A stretch of 64,000 nt of DNA, taken from NCBI GenBank assembly GCA_963801165.1, contig CAWDDT010000001.1:1917-65916 (forward strand), written 5' to 3'. The stretch is from an uncultured bacterium (GTDB lineage: Bacteria > Actinomycetota > Acidimicrobiia > Spongiisociales > UBA5794). Positions within the stretch are counted from its first letter, which is position 1. Each line of letters opens with the position of its first letter. The notes under the pieces are model-generated. The model was given only the letters and a program-made list of their open reading frames with translations, was not told where the DNA came from and searched no databases. Below, in pieces: positions 1,089 through 48,280 of the stretch. Position numbers and translations under genes: made by a program.

Positions 1089-2132
1089 GTGAGAATCGCA
1101 TTCGTCGTCAACGATCTGGCAACCGAAGAGGCTGGTTACACAACTACACGCCTTGGTGTGGCTGCCACGAACCGCGGATGGGAGGCATGGATAATTGGCG
1201 TTGGCGATCTTGCTTACGATCCGGATGAGCACATCAAGGCAACCGCACGACGAGTGCCCAGGACCCGATACAAGACAGGAAAGGCCTATCTGGCCGATCT
1301 CCAGGGCAAGACCGCGATCGAAGAGCGGGTCACCATCGACGATCTTGACATTCTGATGCTGCGCAACGACCCGTCCACGGAAATTGGAAAACGGGAATGG
1401 GCCAGGACTGCAGCTGTGGACTTCGGTCGTGTTGCGCTGCGTCACGGTGTGATCGTTCTCAACGATCCAAATGGTCTCGGCAAGGCGCAGAACAAGATGT
1501 ATTTCCAGACCTTCCCCGAGGAAGTGCGACCGTTGACGCTGATTACCCGTAGCCGTGCCGAGCTCAGGTCATTCGTTGATGACCGCGGGACGGTTGTGCT
1601 GAAGCCGCTCCAGGGCTCGGGTGGCCAGGGTGTGTTCCTGGTACGTCGCGATGACGTTTCCAATCTGAATCAAATCATCGACGCCGTCAACCGCGACGGA
1701 TATGTTGTTGCCCAGGAGTACCTGACGCGAGCTACAGAAGGCGACACTCGGCTGTTCCTGATGAACGGGCAACCGCTGCGTCACCGCGGGCGCTACGCAG
1801 CGTTTCGGCGGGTTCGCTCGGGTGGAGACATGCGCTCGAACCTTCATGCCGGAGGCAAACTGGCCAAAGCTGTTCTCGACGATGATGCGTTCCGTCTCGC
1901 CGAAGTGGTCCGGCCCAAGCTGGTCCAGGATGGGATGTTCCTCGTTGGTCTCGACATCGTCGGCGACAAGCTCATGGAGATCAACGTATTCACCCCCGGC
2001 GGTCTCGGCTCGGCACAGAGGCTCGAGGGTGTCAACTTCACTGAGGCGGTGCTCGACGCGCTGGAGCGCAAGGTCGCCTACATGGGCTTCTATCAACGGA
2101 AGTTCGACAATCGGGAGATGGCAACACTGTGA
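1089..2132 (+). CDS. ATP-grasp ligase, glutathione synthetase / RimK-like
   Basis: 347-aa ORF with a GTG start. It has KPLQGSGGQGVFLV (Gly-rich ATP-grasp loop) and LVGLDIVGDKLMEINVFTPGG (metal/ATP E-x-N motif), and the overall layout of prokaryotic GshB-type ligases. The stop overlaps the next start (GTGA). Confidence 0.8.
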   Translation: MRIAFVVNDLATEEAGYTTTRLGVAATNRGWEAWIIGVGDLAYDPDEHIKATARRVPRTRYKTGKAYLADLQGKTAIEERVTIDDLDILMLRNDPSTEIGKREWARTAAVDFGRVALRHGVIVLNDPNGLGKAQNKMYFQTFPEEVRPLTLITRSRAELRSFVDDRGTVVLKPLQGSGGQGVFLVRRDDVSNLNQIIDAVNRDGYVVAQEYLTRATEGDTRLFLMNGQPLRHRGRYAAFRRVRSGGDMRSNLHAGGKLAKAVLDDDAFRLAEVVRPKLVQDGMFLVGLDIVGDKLMEINVFTPGGLGSAQRLEGVNFTEAVLDALERKVAYMGFYQRKFDNREMATL

Positions 2133-2920
2133 CGGGGCACAAGTGGCAGATCAATCGCGGCGAGGGCCGGGTGGTTGCAGCCGCAATTCACGCTGGGCAC
2201 AGTCTTCGGCCGGAGATCGAGGGACGGACCGCGCTCGACGACGCAACCAGATTGCGTGAAGAAGATCCCTTCACGGATCAATGGCTCTCGATAGCGGGAA
2301 CGACAGTCGCCGTGTCCATGTCGAGGTTTGAGATCGACTTGAATCGGCCTCGGGAGTCGGCGGTCTACATGAAGAACAGCGATGCATGGGACCTCCAGCT
2401 CTGGACAGAGGTGCCACCGCCTGACCTGGTCGAGCGTTTGCTCCAGGACTATGACCTCTTCTATAAGGAATTGGCCGAGACGTGCGATGAGGTTGCGGCA
2501 CGTCATGATCGGTTCGTGGTCCTCGACCTGCACTCGTACAACCATCGCCGGCTGGGGCCAGATGCACCCGTAGACTCACCCGCCGACAATCCGGAAATCA
2601 ACGTCGGCACCGGTTCGGTTGACCGCGCTGTCTGGGGGGATGTCGTCGATTCATTTTGCCAGGCGCTCGCTTCGTATCCTTTTGACGGAGGCCACCTCGA
2701 CGTGCGCGAGAACGTCCGATTCAGAGGCGGGCACATGAGTCGTTGGATCAACGAGCGCTACGCCGGCCGGGGTTGTTGCCTGGCGATCGAGGTCAAGAAG
2801 ATCTACATGGACGAATGGACCGGCCAACCCCAGGAGGCCGTGATCGTGAATATCGGCGATGCCCTGATCGCAGCGACGGAGGCGGTTGTCGAATCGCTTA
2901 GTCAAGCGGCTAGTCAGTGA
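2129..2920 (+). CDS. N-formylglutamate amidohydrolase (FGase) family hydrolase
   Basis: 263-aa ORF translationally coupled to the ATP-grasp gene. AAIHAGHSLRPE, FEIDLNRPRE, VVLDLHSYN and INVGTGS segments resemble the FGase family (PF05013) pattern. Recognised by eye only. Confidence 0.7.
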   Translation: MTGHKWQINRGEGRVVAAAIHAGHSLRPEIEGRTALDDATRLREEDPFTDQWLSIAGTTVAVSMSRFEIDLNRPRESAVYMKNSDAWDLQLWTEVPPPDLVERLLQDYDLFYKELAETCDEVAARHDRFVVLDLHSYNHRRLGPDAPVDSPADNPEINVGTGSVDRAVWGDVVDSFCQALASYPFDGGHLDVRENVRFRGGHMSRWINERYAGRGCCLAIEVKKIYMDEWTGQPQEAVIVNIGDALIAATEAVVESLSQAASQ

Positions 2921-4805
2921 GCGACCTCAGGTCGCTCAGACCCTTCAGGCGCTCGAGTCGATAGTGCGTATCAGGATCATCGAGATAAGCCGGACGTAGC
3001 GGCGGCGTGGTCAAGACACCACGCCGCTGGAGCTCCTCTATAACGGCAACGTGGTTCACCGCGATCTTGCCGACGAGGAGAGTGTCCAGGCGACCACCCT
3101 CGGCAAGGTAGGTGACCACGCGCTGCAGACCGCGGAGATAGATGGCATCCTTGACGAGCCCCCCGCCGCGATGGACTCGCGTTGCGATCTGGAAGGCCGC
3201 TGTTTGCGAGAACCCGTAGTCATCTACGAGCAGCCGGTAGGTGTCGATGAACTCCGCCCCGCTCACCACCGAGTGCGCAGCCACCACCCGGGCGGCGATG
3301 ACTCGCAGGCGCGCCGGGGTTAGGCCGGCGACCAGGTACTCGGCGAGAACCGCGAGTCCTTCTTGGAGTTCATCGTGGCCGGCAAGGCCGGTGGCCAGCA
3401 ATCGGAGACGCTGTGCCGCGCCGTTCCAGTAGGTGACGATATGGGTGCCTACCTCGTGCTGGATGAGGGCTTCGACGCGTCTTATCGGAATTCTCATCCC
3501 CGAGGCCACGAGCAGGCGTCCGTTCGAGACCATCAACGAGGTGATGTCGTCGCGCAGTTCCACTGTTGCCCCGATTGTGGGATCGACCGTCCGGTATCGA
3601 TCGACCTCTAGCTGCGCCGCCGCCGCAAAAGACTTCGCATCCATGACCCGGCGGGCACCTTCGCCCTTTGCCCTCGGCAGCGTGTCTAGCAGGAGGGTGG
3701 CCTCAGCAAGCATGGCTGGATCGATGTCGCCGTACAGTGCGGCGCCGGTGTGCACAAACCGCGGGGTTTGGCGATCGCTCAGCAAATCCAATTCGAGGGA
3801 GAGCTCGCGTTGCTTCTCCCGGAAGATTGCCGCGAGCGTGAGATCCTCGACCCGGTCAATTGGGGCGCTATAAAGCGCTCGCTTCAGATCGACCGGGTCC
3901 ACATCGAGGGGCCGGTAGCGGAACAACGGTGGTGATGACGCCTTCCGCCTCACAAACGATCGGAAGGCCCCGGTGGCGTTCACAGGTGTCACGAGCAGCA
4001 GTAGGTCGAACGCAGAAGCAACCCGGGCGAGCTGACGATCTACGTCTGTGACCGCCTTGACGAGGGCGCGGCGCCCTAACGACTGATAATGACGGGGTCG
4101 GTGCGTCGTCTGATGGACTGCAAACTCGTAGGCCGATCGCTGTATTGCCCTCGACAGTTGGCGGTGCAGCGATCGAGCGATGACCGGGAAGATATCTCCC
4201 GTGTCTCGGTTGCGAAATACCGGCCGGACCTCAACGCCGATCTGGTGGACTGATGAAGTAGCCCTCCCCAGCGATTGCGAAAGCCGGGGGAGACCGGGAG
4301 GCGACATGCGGCCGCCGGCAACGACATCGACTTCGCCGGATCGGCCGTGGATACGTGTTCCGCCGAGACTCGATACCAGACGCGCAACGCTCTCGGATTC
4401 TGCATCACGGCGCGCCACGACAACGCGAAACTGTGGGCGCCGCGCCTCGCCGGCGTCGGAAAGGCCGCCGTCCTCGTCTGGTCCGCTCCACAACTCCATC
4501 AGAAGGAACGAACCGAACTCGGCGACCAATTTGGCGGATACCGCTTCCGCCAAAGCCGCAACCTTGCGCTGGTGTTTGCGGTGTCTTGGGGCAATCAGGT
4601 AGGAGGCCTCGCCCTTGACGAAGCTGGCCATCCCCGGATCTGGTCGGCCGGGAGGGGGCCTATAGACCACAAGAAAGGGCAACTGTCTGTCGATGTGAAT
4701 GCGACCACCATCCGGGAGCGTTCGGCGCACCGGTTTGTTCGCGGCGACTCGGAGCCCGACCTGGGCGATGAGATTATCGGTGATGGAGGTAGGGGGCCGC
4801 GGCAA
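2910..4805 (-). CDS. DUF1704 / MATCAP-like metallocarboxypeptidase-family protein (QEGLA-motif protein)
   Basis: 631-aa ORF with a TTG start preceded by GGAG. It contains HEVGTH (HExxxH, ~3441-3458) followed by DELQEGLAVLAEY (QEGLA, 3351-3365) and the N-terminal IHIDRQLPFLVVYR segment typical of this family. Its 3' end overlaps the convergent FGase gene by 11 nt. Confidence 0.85.
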   Translation of the reverse strand: MPRPPTSITDNLIAQVGLRVAANKPVRRTLPDGGRIHIDRQLPFLVVYRPPPGRPDPGMASFVKGEASYLIAPRHRKHQRKVAALAEAVSAKLVAEFGSFLLMELWSGPDEDGGLSDAGEARRPQFRVVVARRDAESESVARLVSSLGGTRIHGRSGEVDVVAGGRMSPPGLPRLSQSLGRATSSVHQIGVEVRPVFRNRDTGDIFPVIARSLHRQLSRAIQRSAYEFAVHQTTHRPRHYQSLGRRALVKAVTDVDRQLARVASAFDLLLLVTPVNATGAFRSFVRRKASSPPLFRYRPLDVDPVDLKRALYSAPIDRVEDLTLAAIFREKQRELSLELDLLSDRQTPRFVHTGAALYGDIDPAMLAEATLLLDTLPRAKGEGARRVMDAKSFAAAAQLEVDRYRTVDPTIGATVELRDDITSLMVSNGRLLVASGMRIPIRRVEALIQHEVGTHIVTYWNGAAQRLRLLATGLAGHDELQEGLAVLAEYLVAGLTPARLRVIAARVVAAHSVVSGAEFIDTYRLLVDDYGFSQTAAFQIATRVHRGGGLVKDAIYLRGLQRVVTYLAEGGRLDTLLVGKIAVNHVAVIEELQRRGVLTTPPLRPAYLDDPDTHYRLERLKGLSDLRSLTD

Positions 4806-19349: not shown

Positions 19350-20318
19350 TCAGAGGTCCCGCCGGGCGTCCCACGATTCGCTGACCCGCCGGCCAGTCAC
19401 TGGGTCGTGCACAACGACGATGAGCCGATGGTCGTGGTAGGGGACTTCGACGCTCACGCCGGCCGGACCGTCCGGCACGCGAATGTGGGCGACACCCACG
19501 CCGCCGACCAGCCACATTCCTCCGCCCTCGACGCTGATTCCCGAGGCGCCGCGGGTCTCACCCACATTGGCCAACTGGTCCGCGCCATTTCCAGCTTCCC
19601 GGTTCCGGCTTGCCCTAGCGGGTGTGGTGGGGGAGGACGACCTCGGCCGCCACCTGCTCGATGGCCGGGAAGAGAAAGCGGATGACACCAACGGCGAGAG
19701 CGTCCCCACCAACTCGGCGGTGACAAAGCCGGGCACCGATGAGGGTTGTATGCCGGTGAAGGTATCGGAGAACATCCGGGCGACGGTTACGGCCGGGTTG
19801 GCGAAGCTTGTCGACGAGGTGAAGTAATAGGCGCCTGCTATGTAGCCACCGACGGCGAAGGCGACCACGGGTCCCCGCCCAGCCCGGACCAGGCCGAAGA
19901 TCACCAGAAGCAGGCCTAGGGTGGCCACCGCCTCGGCCAGCCACAGGTTGGCGCCCGATCGCGCCGTGGTCGACCAGGCAACGGCGGGCAGGTCGAACAT
20001 GAGGTTGGCGACCACGACGCCCGTGATCCCTCCCGCGACCTGAGCGCCGATGTAGCCGGCGGCCTCTCCGCCCGGCAAGCCGCCGAAGGCGCGATCGGCG
20101 AGCGTTACCGCCGGGTTGAGATGCGCCCCCGACACCCAGCCCAGGGCGAGGATGATCGCGGTGAGTGCACCGGCAGTCGCCAGCGCGTTCTGGAGGAGCT
20201 GGAGGCCCGGGTCGACAGACAGGTTCTCGGCCGTGATGCCGGAACCGACTACGGCGGCGAGGAGGAAGGCGGTTCCGATGAACTCGGCCGCCATCCGTCG
20301 GGCAAGGCCCTGGTTCAC
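19350..20318 (-). CDS. MIP/aquaporin-family channel (ars-associated), apparently frameshifted near 19704-19707; the corrected product would end at 19615
   Basis: Two NPA boxes (HLNPAVTLA, FANPAVTVA). After ...SVPGFVTAELVG the frame becomes low-complexity (SSRPSSRWRPRSSS). The adjacent frame continues with a canonical aquaporin C-terminus, DALAVGVIRFLFPAIEQ...* (track ORF 19615-19944). Confidence 0.75.
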   Translation of the reverse strand: MNQGLARRMAAEFIGTAFLLAAVVGSGITAENLSVDPGLQLLQNALATAGALTAIILALGWVSGAHLNPAVTLADRAFGGLPGGEAAGYIGAQVAGGITGVVVANLMFDLPAVAWSTTARSGANLWLAEAVATLGLLLVIFGLVRAGRGPVVAFAVGGYIAGAYYFTSSTSFANPAVTVARMFSDTFTGIQPSSVPGFVTAELVGTLSPLVSSAFSSRPSSRWRPRSSSPTTPARASRNREAGNGADQLANVGETRGASGISVEGGGMWLVGGVGVAHIRVPDGPAGVSVEVPYHDHRLIVVVHDPVTGRRVSESWDARRDL

Positions 20319-20965
20319 GTGCGGGCGGGGACGTCGAGCTCAGCCATCAGGATGCGCACCCTGGAGCGGATCTCGTCGCGGACCTCACGCACCACCTCGA
20401 TTGGCTGGCCCGCCGGATCGGTGAGCTCCCAATCCTCGTACCGCTTGCCGGGGAACACCGGGCAGGCATCGCCGCACCCCATCGTGATCACCACATCGGC
20501 GGCTCGCACAACCTCATCGGTCCAGGGACGGGGGAACTCGGAGGCGATGTCGATGCCCACCTCGGCCATGGCGGCCACGGCAGTCTGGTTGACCTCAGAC
20601 CCGGGCTCGGATCCTCCCGAGAACACGTCTACGCTCTCGCCCGCCAGGTGGCGGAGCCACCCGGATGCCATCTGGGAGCGGCCGGCGTTGTGCACGCACA
20701 AGAAGAGCACGGCGGGCTTCTCGACGGTGACGAGACCCTCGACACGGGCCAGAGCGCGCAGCCGGTCGCGGGCAAAGCGCTCGATCAGCATCGGCAGCCA
20801 GGTATTCACCCGGGCCCGACCCTCGAGATCATGCTGAGACTCGCTCATGAACCGCTCGATGGTCTCCACCGAGAACGTGCCGGCAAACTCGCTCTTCAGC
20901 CGCTCCGCGGCCTGCGCCACCATCATTCGTTGCTCAACGGTCATCGCAGATGCCTGCTCGTTCAT
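20315..20965 (-). CDS. arsC: Arsenate reductase, low-molecular-weight phosphatase type, with an N-terminal helical extension
   Basis: VLFLCVHNAGRSQMA (CX5R P-loop)...ITMGCGDACP...DPAG. It carries an ~85-aa N-terminal extension. Stop and start overlap the neighbouring genes. Confidence 0.85.
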   Translation of the reverse strand: MNEQASAMTVEQRMMVAQAAERLKSEFAGTFSVETIERFMSESQHDLEGRARVNTWLPMLIERFARDRLRALARVEGLVTVEKPAVLFLCVHNAGRSQMASGWLRHLAGESVDVFSGGSEPGSEVNQTAVAAMAEVGIDIASEFPRPWTDEVVRAADVVITMGCGDACPVFPGKRYEDWELTDPAGQPIEVVREVRDEIRSRVRILMAELDVPART

Positions 20966-21618
20966 TGCTCCGCCTCTCTGTTCAGCGTGCGGATCCGATC
21001 ACGGATCCTCTTGAGTGTCATGTCGAAAGTCTCCGCAGTGGGCTCGGCGACCGGGTCGGGGGTAGACCAGTGCCACCAGCGATCGCCGGGCGTGAGCTCC
21101 TCGTGGGCTCGATCGCAGACCGTGACCACCCACGCCGGCTCGATGCCGATCTCGTCGAGAGACCGGGGGACCGCCGAGCTCAGATCCAGCCCGGAGCGGG
21201 ATGCAGCCACGACCGCGCCCGGGTGTACCCGGTCTGCGGGATGTGTCCCTGCGCTCATCGCCGGTGCCCCTGTCTCCTGCTCCCACACCACGGCCGCCAG
21301 CTGCGAACGCGCCGAGTTGTGGGTACAGACGAACAGGACCGGTCCTTGCGGCAGGGTGGCGCCGACACCAATCTCGCGCAATGACTCGTGACGCAATCGC
21401 ACGTAGCGACGGCGTCGGTCACCCGAGGAGGTGACCCGCTCGATGAGCGAGGCCGCCTCGAGCACATCGAGATGATGCGCCAGCAGATTCGAAGGCAAGT
21501 GGTGGTGTTGTGACAGCTCCTGGGGCGACCGGTCGGATGCGACGAGGTCATCAATGATCGACAGCCGCACCGGATCCCCGAGCGCCGAATGGCGTTTGGC
21601 ACGTTCAGCTACATCCAT
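20962..21618 (-). CDS. ArsR-type HTH regulator fused to an LMW-phosphatase-type ArsC domain
   Basis: HSALGDPVRLSIIDDLVASDRSPQELSQHHHLPSNLLAHHLDVLEAASLIERV (ArsR/SmtB wHTH) followed by VLFVCTHNSARSQLAA (CX5R). Start set at the internal ATG 21618. Confidence 0.8.
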   Translation of the reverse strand: MDVAERAKRHSALGDPVRLSIIDDLVASDRSPQELSQHHHLPSNLLAHHLDVLEAASLIERVTSSGDRRRRYVRLRHESLREIGVGATLPQGPVLFVCTHNSARSQLAAVVWEQETGAPAMSAGTHPADRVHPGAVVAASRSGLDLSSAVPRSLDEIGIEPAWVVTVCDRAHEELTPGDRWWHWSTPDPVAEPTAETFDMTLKRIRDRIRTLNREAEQ

Positions 21619-21631
21619 GCTCGGGACCCTA

Positions 21632-21668
21632 TCTCTCAAGAAATAATGAGTCAAGAGATTTTGAGAGA
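21632..21668. promoter_or_regulatory. AT-rich inverted repeat TCTCTCAA-N21-TTGAGAGA in the ars / membrane-protein divergent promoter region (candidate ArsR operator)
   Basis: Perfect 8-bp arms read from the sequence. It lies in the only markedly AT-rich stretch here, 14 nt upstream of the ArsR-ArsC start. Confidence 0.4.
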
Positions 21669-21768
21669 ATTGAATCGGATCCCTGGGCCGGGAGGCCTGA
21701 GTTAGTGACAAACGGCTCTATCAAGTGCGTGTCGCCGGGTGGATGTTCGCGGTGAAAAGGAGGGCCGA

Positions 21769-45097: not shown

Positions 45098-45258
45098 GCG
45101 CTCCAATTCACTCCAGATATCGCAACGATTCTGGGCGGGCTAGATGAGCTTTGCATGAGATCCTGGCACCTCGAAGCGTCGGTCGATGGCGTCGGCGTCG
45201 TAATGGATGGCGAGCGGCGAGAATGGCCGGACAACATCGAGCATACGGAGAAAGGCTC

Positions 45259-46311
45259 ATGAGCGATACGGGAAACGATTCCGGGACAGGTTCACAGTCG
45301 ATGGAGATCGGGATGATCGGTCTGGGAAGGATGGGCTCCAACCTGGCCAGGCGCTTGACCCAGGCGGGCCACCGCTGTGTCGCATACGACGTCAACCCGG
45401 AGGCGGCCGCCGCCCTCGAGGACGCGGGTGTGACGGGTGCGGCCACCGTCGAGAAGCTGGTCGCCGCTTTGAGCGCACCACGGGCGATCTGGGTAATGAT
45501 CCCGGCCGCATACGTGCAGTCCGTCGTCGCCGAGCTATCCGGTCTGCTCGATCCCGGCGACGTCATCATCGACGGCGGCAACAGCAACTACAGGGACGAT
45601 ATCGCCCGTCACCGCAGCCTGCAGCAGGCAGGTATCGGTTTTGTCGACTGTGGCACCAGCGGGGGCGTCTGGGGTTTGGAGCGCGGGTACAGCCTGATGA
45701 TCGGTGGTGACCCCGAGTATGTGCAGCGGCTCGACCCGATATTCAAAGCGATCGCACCCGGGCGCGAGTCGGCACCTGCAACCCCGGGGAGAACCGCCGA
45801 TTCGGGAACTGCCCCCGACGGGTATCACCACTGCGGTCCGGCGGGTGCCGGGCACTTCGTCAAGATGGTCCACAACGGTGTTGAGTACGGGATGATGTCC
45901 GCTATCGCCGAGGGTCTCTCGATCATCAAGGGTGCCGGGATCGGGCTCAAGCAGCAGGCCCACGACGCAGAGACGACACCGCTGCGGGACCCGGATGCGT
46001 ACCGCTACGAGATCGATATCCCCGAAGTGGCCGAGGTATGGCGACGCGGCACCGTGATTTCATCATGGCTCATCGATCTCGTCGCCGACGCCCTGGCAAG
46101 AGACGGCGAGCTCACCGGGTTCGAAGGCCGGGTGTCGGACAGCGGCGAGGGACGGTGGACGGCGATCGCGGCGATCGAGGAAGGTATCCCGGCGCCGGTC
46201 ATCACCACTGCCCTGCAGGAGCGCTTTGCGTCACGGGACGCCGACCTCTTTACGGATCGCGTTCTCTCGGCCATGCGCAGCGAGTTTGGCGGACACGCGG
46301 AGAAATCCTAG
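45259..46311 (+). CDS. gnd: 6-phosphogluconate dehydrogenase (decarboxylating), short Gnd-like form
   Basis: IGMIGLGRMGSNLARRL...IIDGGNSNY...FVDCGTSGGVWG...GAGHFVKMVHNGVEYGMM. ATG 45259 is preceded by GGAGAAAGG. Confidence 0.85.
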   Translation: MSDTGNDSGTGSQSMEIGMIGLGRMGSNLARRLTQAGHRCVAYDVNPEAAAALEDAGVTGAATVEKLVAALSAPRAIWVMIPAAYVQSVVAELSGLLDPGDVIIDGGNSNYRDDIARHRSLQQAGIGFVDCGTSGGVWGLERGYSLMIGGDPEYVQRLDPIFKAIAPGRESAPATPGRTADSGTAPDGYHHCGPAGAGHFVKMVHNGVEYGMMSAIAEGLSIIKGAGIGLKQQAHDAETTPLRDPDAYRYEIDIPEVAEVWRRGTVISSWLIDLVADALARDGELTGFEGRVSDSGEGRWTAIAAIEEGIPAPVITTALQERFASRDADLFTDRVLSAMRSEFGGHAEKS

Positions 46312-46373: not shown

Positions 46374-46402
46374 CCGGCCGCGGTGCGCCTATCCGCGGCC
46401 GG
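46374..46402. terminator. Perfect 10-bp GC hairpin (CCGGCCGCGG-N9-CCGCGGCCGG) between convergent gnd and peroxiredoxin genes
   Basis: Read directly from the sequence. It sits between the two stop codons (46311 and 46437). There is no clear U-tract, which is common in high-GC genomes. Confidence 0.45.
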
Positions 46403-46436: not shown

Positions 46437-47048
46437 TTAGCCCTTCTCCATGGTCGGGTTCCAAATCTCCCAAACCCTGCCGACCAGGTCGGGGCCGGGG
46501 GTGAGGGTGACGTCGCCGGGTTCCCACCCGGCCGGGGTCGCCCGGGCTCCACCGCTTTCCCTCACCAGCTGAAACGCCTTGATCTGGCGGATGGTCTCCG
46601 CGATGCGCCGCCCGACCGGTGGCGTGAGCACCTCCATAGCCTGGATGACGCCGTCGGGGTCGATGATGAACCGCCCCCGTAGCTCGATACCCTGTTTCTC
46701 GTCCCAGACACCGTACGCCCGGCCGATGTTTCCGGCCTGATCCGAGACCATGGGGAACGGGACTCCGCCGTCGACCATCTTGGTCAGCTCGTTCTCGTTC
46801 CACATCTTGTGGACGAAGTGGCTGTCGACACTCACCGACATGACATCGACACCGAGAGCCTGAAGCTCTGAATACTTGTCGGCGACCGCCGACACTTCAG
46901 TCGCTCAGACGAAGGTGAAGTCACCCGGGTAGAAACACAGCAACACCCATTTGCCGGCGTGATCCGACAAAGAGACCTGGGTGAAGCCGTCGTTGTGATA
47001 GGCAGGCGCGGTGAAGTCGGGCGCCTTCTGCCCAACGGTAGCGGTCAA
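46437..47048 (-). CDS. Peroxiredoxin (Prx1/AhpC-type) with in-frame TGA (46905-46907) at the peroxidatic Cys position: probable selenocysteine-containing peroxiredoxin
   Basis: Track ORFs 46905-47147 and 46437-46895 are in the same frame, separated only by TGA. Together they read ...[15 protein letters not shown]-[TGA][14 protein letters not shown]...[34 protein letters not shown], against the canonical FYPxDFTFVCPTE. The preferred start is TTG 47048, preceded by GGGAGG; ATG 47147 is the alternative. Confidence 0.7.
46878..46893 (-). promoter_or_regulatory. Candidate bacterial SECIS hairpin: GUCGGC-GGUC-GCCGAC, starting 11 nt after the UGA
   Basis: RNA reads UGA GCG ACU GAA GU[GUCGGC GGUC GCCGAC]AAG. 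The stem is 6 bp (7 with the flanking U-A). The apical GGUC loop places G/U at +22/+23 from the U of UGA. Confidence 0.55.
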
Positions 47049-47242
47049 TTTGGCCTCCCTGGGCGATTGGTCGGACGGTTGTGGAGATAGTTCGGGATCT
47101 TCCCCGACAACGCCCGTCACGCGGGCGCAACCGAGTTGATCTGCCATCGCTCCTCTCCCATGCTCGGGCCGACGTGAGTCTAACTCACAGTCGAACGCTG
47201 CTGATTTCTTGGAAGGTCGGGGTCGTCAGAACAGCTCGGTGT

Positions 47243-48280
47243 ATGGTGCAGCCGATGGTCAAGAGAAGTCAGCGTTTGAAGGTGCTCAAGGCGAGGATCG
47301 AGGGGTACACCGGGGCCTTCTACATGTGGCTGGCATTGGCCGCGGCCATATTCGTCATGGTTGAGGCAGGTCTCCGTCTGGCCGGTGAGAAGACCTACCC
47401 GGTCAGTGAGTCTCTGTGGTTGATGGAGGTTGCGGTTGCCGGGTGGGCGATCCAGGCGTACAGAGGTCCATTCTCGAGGCTTCTTGCGGACTTCGTGCAG
47501 CTGACCCGTCTCCACCGATCGAGCGATGCCGGGCCGGGAGACAATGACGCTGATTCGGTTGCGCGATACGTCGCTTGTTCAACCGACGCCGCGTTCTCGT
47601 TGTGGAGCCCGTTGCCGATGGCACTCATCGTCGGGGTGGGACTGGGGTGGGCGGCCACGCTCTGGTCCCTCGGGTCGCCGTTCAACCGGTCGCTAACCGG
47701 ATGGCTGTCGTATCTGTTCTTCATACCGATGGTGGTGACAGGCATGTGGGGCTCCGCATGTGTGGTGCGTGTGCTCCGAGCGTTTCAGGATGCTGCGTCG
47801 CACGGTCTGGACACGTATTTCTCGTCGTCGAAGAATCCGACACTTGTGGCAATGGAGCAGCGATGGTCGTCATATGGCGTGGTCATCGCTCTCGTCTACT
47901 TCCTGGTTCTCGGTGCTCTGTGGCTCGGCCCCTTCGCGCTGAGCATGATGCCTCTCCCGATTTGGCTCTCGGTGCTGGCGACGATCCCGCTGCTCTGGTG
48001 GCTGGCCGGAGGTTTCCAGCTCCACACCTACCTGGCGGAGATCAAGCGGTCCAATCTCGGCAAGGCGGCGGCGAGAGTAACCCAGCTCTCGAACGCATTA
48101 CGCGACGATTCTTCGGGTGATGAGTTGATGAGCCTCAGCATTGCGCTAGACATAGAGGCACGAGTGGACGAGATGGATGAGTGGCCCGCAGGGTTTGACC
48201 TCAGAGGCTTTCTGGTTGCCGCGACACCGATTGCAGCGCAGACCCTCGTCGTCCTCGCCGGGTGGGACATCGTGTCCTGA
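47243..48280 (+). CDS. Hypothetical polytopic membrane protein
   Basis: About 345 aa from the internal ATG 47243, with several hydrophobic segments (FYMWLALAAAIFVMV, LWLMEVAVAGWAI, LPMALIVGVGLGWAATLW, YLFFIPMVVTGMWGSACVV, VVIALVYFLVLGALWLGPF, IWLSVLATIPLLWWLAGGF). No family recognised. Confidence 0.55.
   Translation: MVQPMVKRSQRLKVLKARIEGYTGAFYMWLALAAAIFVMVEAGLRLAGEKTYPVSESLWLMEVAVAGWAIQAYRGPFSRLLADFVQLTRLHRSSDAGPGDNDADSVARYVACSTDAAFSLWSPLPMALIVGVGLGWAATLWSLGSPFNRSLTGWLSYLFFIPMVVTGMWGSACVVRVLRAFQDAASHGLDTYFSSSKNPTLVAMEQRWSSYGVVIALVYFLVLGALWLGPFALSMMPLPIWLSVLATIPLLWWLAGGFQLHTYLAEIKRSNLGKAAARVTQLSNALRDDSSGDELMSLSIALDIEARVDEMDEWPAGFDLRGFLVAATPIAAQTLVVLAGWDIVS

Follow-up and report, generated by a model that had tools for sequence, protein, structure and literature searches.

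The 64,000-nt window analysed here (contig CAWDDT010000001.1 of assembly GCA_963801165.1, from an uncultured member of the Acidimicrobiia) very probably carries a functional prxU gene, which would encode a thioredoxin-dependent peroxiredoxin (Prx) of the Prx1/AhpC fold with selenocysteine (Sec) as the peroxidatic residue. In its long form the reading frame occupies 46437..47147 on the reverse strand (236 codons including Sec81; ATG at 47147-47145, TAA at 46439-46437). It consists of two open reading frames (ORF), 46905..47147(-) and 46437..46895(-), which lie in a common frame with one TGA (46905-46907) between them. Both the coordinates and the joined translation agreed with the initial annotation of this DNA. 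The range given there began at an internal TTG (47048) and missed an N-terminal extension, as the ORF continues to the ATG at 47147.

Family assignment and active site

Profile scans of the joined protein were run with Cys substituted for the TGA-encoded residue (U). The NCBIfam equivalog model NF040737 (peroxi_PrxU) gave 379.3 bits, above its curated cutoff of 270, with the match spanning residues 6-232 of 236 and profile positions 3-232 of 233. AhpC proper (TIGR03137) scored 194 bits, under its cutoff of 272. Pfam matches were AhpC-TSA (7.6e-41), Redoxin and 1-cysPrx_C, and the nearest PDB entries were AhpC/Prx1 enzymes (1we0 at E = 4e-46, aligned over residues 38-225). The earlier description of a full-length Prx1/AhpC-type peroxiredoxin was thus borne out by the NF040737 score and the AhpC-TSA match. 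The gene is a genuine member of the PrxU family of selenoperoxiredoxins, of the Prx1/AhpC type; the family is already catalogued and curated. Sec-containing peroxiredoxins are a characterised family with a TxxU motif (PMC13188914, PMC9312934), founded on PrxU of Eubacterium acidaminophilum according to the citation of Sohling 2001 in PMC13188914, and rank seventh in commonness among bacterial selenoprotein families (PMC5029168).

The active-site motif in the joined translation reads P74-G-D-F-T78-F-V-U81. The UGA of codon 81 (46905..46907, reverse strand) is the last position of PxxxTxxC/U, as had been proposed, and places the predicted Sec at the peroxidatic position. Residues T78, R157 and R159 were invariant in an alignment of 80 database proteins (A2), and the conserved active-site Arg is thus present. 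The canonical resolving-Cys motif EVCPAKW of AhpC 1we0 corresponds to RATPAGW in the window protein, in agreement with the initial annotation that this Cys is absent, and none of the 81 sequences had a Cys downstream of Sec.

Conservation of the UGA codon and purifying selection

When GTDB species were scanned, with one genome for each, 80 loci were retrieved (71-84% amino acid (aa) identity). Of these, L048 was dropped as the motif was lacking; the remaining 79 plus L001, a 634-kb metagenome contig from ENA, made up the 80 related loci analysed. L001 was 96.8% identical to window positions 36431-56867, fully syntenic, and shared the TGA. The scan loci spanned Chloroflexota/Anaerolineales, Acidimicrobiia and other Actinomycetota, Acidobacteriota, Gammaproteobacteria (including Thiobacillus) and NC10, and several of the TGA-bearing prxU loci were Acidimicrobiia metagenome-assembled genomes (MAG). 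The Sec codon was TGA in 80/80 related loci (at least five phyla) and in 81/81 sequences.

Homologues retrieved by protein search were of two types. The first, 151-153 aa long and 87-99% identical, were genes cut at the TGA. The second were full-length, and their active-site column held W in 90 of 112, C in 20, G in one and S in one. The W at the Sec column is, judging by the case verified on DNA (P0008), a genetic-code-4 gene-calling artefact: the W of P0008 is a TGA, on a contig of 34% GC whose locus did not match the query under code 11. The spurious Trp arises from code-4 switching by metagenome gene callers on short contigs (P0001-P0120; L084). Prodigal-type pipelines therefore either split prxU (80 + 152 aa) or insert a false Trp, an error that recurs systematically in the annotation of this family. 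The expectation that standard pipelines would annotate two fragments held for such callers, which give 152-aa fragments or a code-4 Trp, but not for NCBI, which has the PrxU model NF040737.

Ratios of nonsynonymous to synonymous substitution (dN/dS; Nei-Gojobori, window against ten relatives with finite dS, dS 0.5-1.6) were 0.07-0.21 over 44 codons upstream of the TGA and 0.06-0.17 over 99 codons downstream of it. A range of 0.06-0.12 on either side of the TGA, at dS 0.6-1.3, was also recorded. There were no frameshifts or additional stops in the prxU frame, and purifying selection acts on the parts before and after the TGA.

Predicted selenocysteine insertion sequence hairpin

The apical hairpin of a predicted bacterial selenocysteine insertion sequence (SECIS) was located at 46877..46894 on the reverse strand by folding (-12.0 kcal/mol) and comparison (7-bp stem UGUCGGC/GCCGACA, loop GGUC). 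It begins 10-11 nt past the UGA, with the loop G/U at +22/+23 counted from the U of UGA. The hairpin GUCGGC-GGUC-GCCGAC previously placed at 46878-46893, with the same loop positions, was correct and extends to 7 bp. A 51-nt segment folded at -21.2 kcal/mol (z = -3.2), and 2/200 shuffles folded equally well; in DNA of 64% GC, fold energy by itself is only suggestive. The hairpin stands above chance because of the comparative evidence, namely the TGA in all sequences, invariant four-fold degenerate sites and covariation.

Codons +6 (GCG) and +7 (GTC) supply the last part of the 5' arm and the loop, and their four-fold sites did not vary among the 81 sequences. At invariant residues in other parts of the gene, comparable four-fold sites had entropies of 1.5-1.9 bits. 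Codon +5 (TCG 72, TCA 7, TCC 2) covaried with codon +8 (GCC 72, GCT 7, GCG 2). In the ungapped alignment A1 the apical helix was 95.6% paired, with compensatory changes (pair 21-30: GC 70, AU 6, CG 2, unpaired 0; pair 18-33: GC 54, AU 11), so that conservation of the hairpin in UGA-containing orthologues, for which the initial annotation had asked, was found. The covariation score was matched by 0/500 shuffles, and slid controls were 27-61% paired. The window hairpin was identical to the consensus of the 80 relatives. Distant Sec-type genes (32-45% GC) had a hairpin at the same offset with the loop AGUU, in which the G and U positions were kept. A Cys-type homologue had no comparable hairpin (-3.4 kcal/mol vs -5.7 to -12.0 kcal/mol in Sec-type genes). 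The lower, outer stem CUGAA/UUCAG of the window's minimum free energy fold was rejected as a part of the SECIS, being 55.6% paired across relatives.

From +1 to +34 counted from the TGA, the stem-loop of loci L002-L081 was nearly identical in nucleotides across Chloroflexota, Actinomycetota, Acidobacteriota, Gammaproteobacteria and NC10. This near-identity across phyla suggests that a prxU cassette has spread horizontally and that its SECIS may work with diverse SelB proteins.

N-terminal extension, conserved cysteines and candidate internal start

The window gene belongs to the UATE subtype and has an extension of about 33 residues, with the motif G6-C7-A-R-V-T-G12 at 47112..47132 on the reverse strand (Cys7 codon 47129-47127). 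All 81 sequences opened with M-A-[DE]-x-x-x-G-C-[AG]-R-[VTI]-[TS]-G, in which G, C and R were invariant (81/81). An ATG lay 6-9 codons ahead of the conserved Cys in 81/81 loci, with a Shine-Dalgarno (SD)-like motif upstream in 80/81; in the window, a purine-rich SD-like stretch, GGGAGAGGAG, followed by the long-form ATG can be read from the sequence at 47145..47159 (reverse strand). Third positions of the G, C and R codons varied freely (entropy 1.6-1.9 bits). Along the linker (26-34 residues, rich in Pro, Glu and Ser) the frame was open in 81/81 loci, and the other two frames were stopped in 63 and 51 loci. Invariant G, C and R with free third positions and an open frame argue that the extension is translated and under protein-level selection. 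The UPTE-type Sec-Prx L085 and the short Cys-type gene L086 truly lacked the extension.

Cys7 was also invariant in alignment A2. A second conserved Cys, Cys71 (codon 46935..46937, reverse strand; LLCFYPGD), lies ten residues before Sec; Cys was found at -10 in 81/81 sequences (TGC 53, TGT 28) and was invariant in alignments A2 and A3, and typical AhpC has Phe there. The designation 1-Cys-type (Sec-only) in the initial annotation is therefore an unsafe description, Cys7 and Cys71 being invariant in 80-81 sequences and either possibly having a catalytic role. Cys7 is a candidate resolving or redox-partner residue. The extension had no PDB counterpart, structure matches starting at residue 38. 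In an AlphaFold2 monomer of the Cys-form relative P0002, the predicted local distance difference test score was >90 for the Prx domain and <50 for residues 1-12 and 19-36.

An internal SD sequence, AGGGAGG, followed by a 5-nt spacer and TTG (codon 34), lies at 47046..47060 on the reverse strand and is a candidate second start for a 203-aa form. A start codon was present at this site in 80/81 loci (ATG 68, GTG 10, TTG 2), with GGAG exactly 6 nt upstream in 69/81 (background 5.3% in the same coding sequences). The site was conserved at the nucleotide level in UATE-type PrxU genes (AAGGAG plus ATG, GTG or TTG), and gene callers begin at it in some relatives (L087). This pattern suggests that a single ORF gives isoforms of 236 and 203 aa through two start sites. 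The searched literature contained no description of an N-terminal resolving Cys in a Sec-Prx, nor of the N-terminal extension and two-isoform feature.

Selenocysteine machinery and host context

A search (tblastn) with SelA, SelB and SelD of L030 and SelB and SelD of Escherichia coli against the window and the 81 loci gave matches in L030, L056 and L076 only. In L030 (10001-15717), prxU, selA, selB, the gene for tRNA-Sec and selD were contiguous (574, 453 and 555 bits, all over the equivalog cutoffs), and in L056 and L076 the sel genes stood beside prxU much as in L030. These three loci were from gammaproteobacterial and Thiobacillus MAGs, in which the peroxiredoxin gene and the full Sec machinery move together. 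A transfer RNA (tRNA) scan of the window found zero tRNAs of any kind. On sequence grounds, the window organism is presumed to be Sec-competent and actually to insert Sec at this codon.

The initial annotation had regarded selenoproteins as uncommon in actinobacterial-type genomes, which is at odds with the literature. Actinobacteria are one of three phyla rich in selenoprotein families (Zhang 2006, PMC1794560), and published work also finds Sec machinery among mycobacteria (PMC13449736) and in Actinomarina of the class Acidimicrobiia (10.64898/2026.04.03.716425).

By Pfam annotation the window contains ordinary chromosomal genes, including ATP-grasp, FGase, a histidine kinase, ABC transporters, class I fumarase, an ars-like MIP/LMWPc cluster, acyl-CoA ligases, a Liv-type transporter, trehalose and glycogen genes, G6PD, PEPCK and an amidase. 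The class I fumarase was 88-90% identical to proteins of Acidimicrobiia and Actinomycetota MAGs. At 19350-21711 (reverse strand), a MIP-family channel is followed by two genes with LMWPc (ArsC-like) phosphatase domains, one fused to HTH_20 (ArsR-like), which together look like an arsenic-resistance cluster. At 1089-4805, genes for a glutathione-synthetase-like ATP-grasp protein, an N-formylglutamate amidohydrolase-family protein and a protein of 631 aa whose carboxypeptidase domain is of the MATCAP type (PF08014) are adjacent, and look like a conserved trio.

Alternative explanations

Several observations weigh against the gene being a Sec-decoded PrxU as described. Neither the 64-kb window nor the 20-kb syntenic locus of L001 contained selA, selB, selD or tRNA-Sec, and a scan of the window for TGA read-through (GC content at third codon positions >0.8 on both sides) gave no second selenoprotein candidate. 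The other read-through pairs in the window were rejected as antisense-frame artefacts, plus one pair of adjacent ABC-transporter genes. The N-terminal extension is of low confidence in the P0002 model, which leaves the proposed role of Cys7 without structural support. The predicted stem is without the bulged U of the E. coli fdhF hairpin. Rfam gave no match to the whole window at the gathering threshold or to the hairpin at E ≤ 10, though it has no usable bacterial SECIS model, as a preprint likewise notes (10.64898/2026.04.03.716425).

The missing sel genes, tRNA-Sec and second selenoprotein would also fit a functional gene whose UGA is not decoded as Sec in this organism, following recent loss of the Sec machinery with near-cognate (Trp/Cys) readthrough, or with conversion to TGC under way. 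However, 64 kb covers only a minor share of a genome several megabases long, and absence from it is weak evidence. In addition, the SECIS hairpin is intact and matches the consensus of its relatives, and the relative at 96.8% average nucleotide identity and two others at ~75% nt identity retain the TGA and the hairpin with dN/dS of ~0.06, which would be unexpected after loss of the machinery; this explanation is considered unlikely. A pseudogene or a sequencing error takes one base change from TGC or TGT to TGA, yet the same TGA in 81/81 independent sequences, strong purifying selection on both halves, a conserved RNA structure with compensatory changes and the lack of frameshifts effectively refute it, and it retains a very low probability.

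Equally improbable is that the gene yields two products, an N-terminal peptide of 80 aa that stops at the TGA and a C-terminal protein of 152 aa that starts at GTG 46895. Public gene calls do include the 152-aa fragment (P0010, P0013 and others) and the 80-aa ORF, but neither fragment has a complete thioredoxin fold or active site, and the two parts are always adjacent and in frame with the TGA as sole separator. Moreover, GTG 46895 is Val85 of the conserved EVSAV, and no SD precedes it because the sequence there is the SECIS stem. Least probable of all is a genetic code (4 or 25) in which TGA is a sense codon throughout the genome, to which the many database relatives translated with W at the Sec position might point; the W is a gene-caller artefact, and the 36 Pfam-supported genes of the window stop with TGA in 29 cases and TAG in seven. 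TGA is thus a normal terminator in the window, and reassignment is refuted. Together with the PrxU model, the conserved TGA, the covarying hairpin and purifying selection on both sides, this agrees with the initial annotation that the gene is Sec-decoded and not a pseudogene.

Flanking features

A GC-rich inverted repeat, CCGGCCGCGG-N9-CCGCGGCCGG, lies at 46374..46402 (reverse strand; perfect over 10 bp), 35 nt past the prxU TAA and between prxU and the convergent 6PGD-like gene 45151..46311(+). It folds at -29.7 kcal/mol and is kept in L001. Its T-tail is weak, for which reason the consensus scan for terminators passed over it; the repeat is a likely candidate for a terminator between the two genes. 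The consensus scan for promoters and terminators found no promoter and just two chance-level terminator-like sites, within the ORF. The true prxU stop, TAA in the window, was TAG in 44, TAA in 27 and TGA in nine of the 80 analysed loci, against TGA in 29 of 36 neighbouring genes of the window; this may reflect avoidance of a second UGA, or foreign origin. The divergent neighbour of prxU (47081-48280, forward strand) is a predicted membrane protein of 399 aa without a Pfam match; its counterpart in L001 has 345 aa and likewise no Pfam match.

Proposed decoding and catalysis

In the proposed mechanism, the hairpin downstream of UGA-81 would be bound by SelB-GTP-Sec-tRNA(Sec), Sec would be delivered to the UGA in the A site instead of release factor 2, and translation would run on to the TAA at 46437. 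The selenolate in the PxxxTxxU/Arg active site would then reduce H2O2 or organic hydroperoxides and become a selenenic acid. This could be resolved through a selenenylsulfide with an invariant Cys, for which Cys7 of the flexible extension is the leading candidate and Cys71 the alternative, or be reduced directly by thioredoxin. In this scheme Sec insertion in this organism, the reductant, the roles of Cys7 and Cys71 and the use of two start sites are inferred.

A tentative extension of this scheme, which is considered doubtful, is that UATE-type PrxU forms an undescribed mechanistic class, combining a Cys7-Sec81 selenenylsulfide on a flexible tail, a tail-less 203-aa isoform, and a horizontally mobile SECIS cassette serving many SelB proteins. 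If true, two enzymes with different recycling chemistry would come from one ORF. Recognition of PrxU restores a complete antioxidant enzyme and implies selenium use by an uncultured Acidimicrobiia-like soil or sediment lineage. Its impact on the field is small, as Sec-peroxiredoxins have been known since 2001, NCBI has a curated model, and dozens of reference MAGs, including Acidimicrobiia, carry them with an identical UGA and the hairpin. Possibly new biology is limited to the N-terminal tail with its invariant Cys and to the internal start.

Comparison with known systems

The window gene resembles PrxU of E. acidaminophilum and the NF040737 family in its AhpC/Prx1-type fold, in the UGA-encoded Sec in TxxU, in the lack of a C-terminal resolving Cys and in the hairpin directly 3' of the UGA. 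It differs in its host, an uncultured Actinomycetota of 64% GC and not an anaerobic Firmicute. Within the PrxU family it is of the UATE subtype with the Cys-bearing extension, in contrast to the UPTE subtype (L085), which is without it. Purified PrxU of E. acidaminophilum reportedly had ~203 aa (22 kDa), equal to the short form of the window protein.

AhpC of Amphibacillus xylanus (1we0) and of Salmonella have the PxxxTxxC motif, the conserved Arg and the C-terminal domain in common with the window protein, whereas typical 2-Cys AhpC have Cys for Sec and a C-terminal resolving Cys, and have neither the N-terminal Cys extension nor the Cys at -10. With the SECIS of E. coli fdhF, in which G23 and U24 are the bases contacted by SelB, the window hairpin shares its position ~11 nt past the UGA and the apical loop GGUC; its loop lies one nt nearer the UGA, its stem is unrelated in sequence and has no bulged U, and its lower stem is not conserved. 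SelB specificities vary among lineages. In yeast Ahp1, an enzyme of the Prx5 type, the resolving Cys31 is N-terminal to the peroxidatic residue and lies inside the fold. The window protein would be like Ahp1 only if Cys7 resolves the selenenic acid, and it would do so from a flexible, low-complexity tail.

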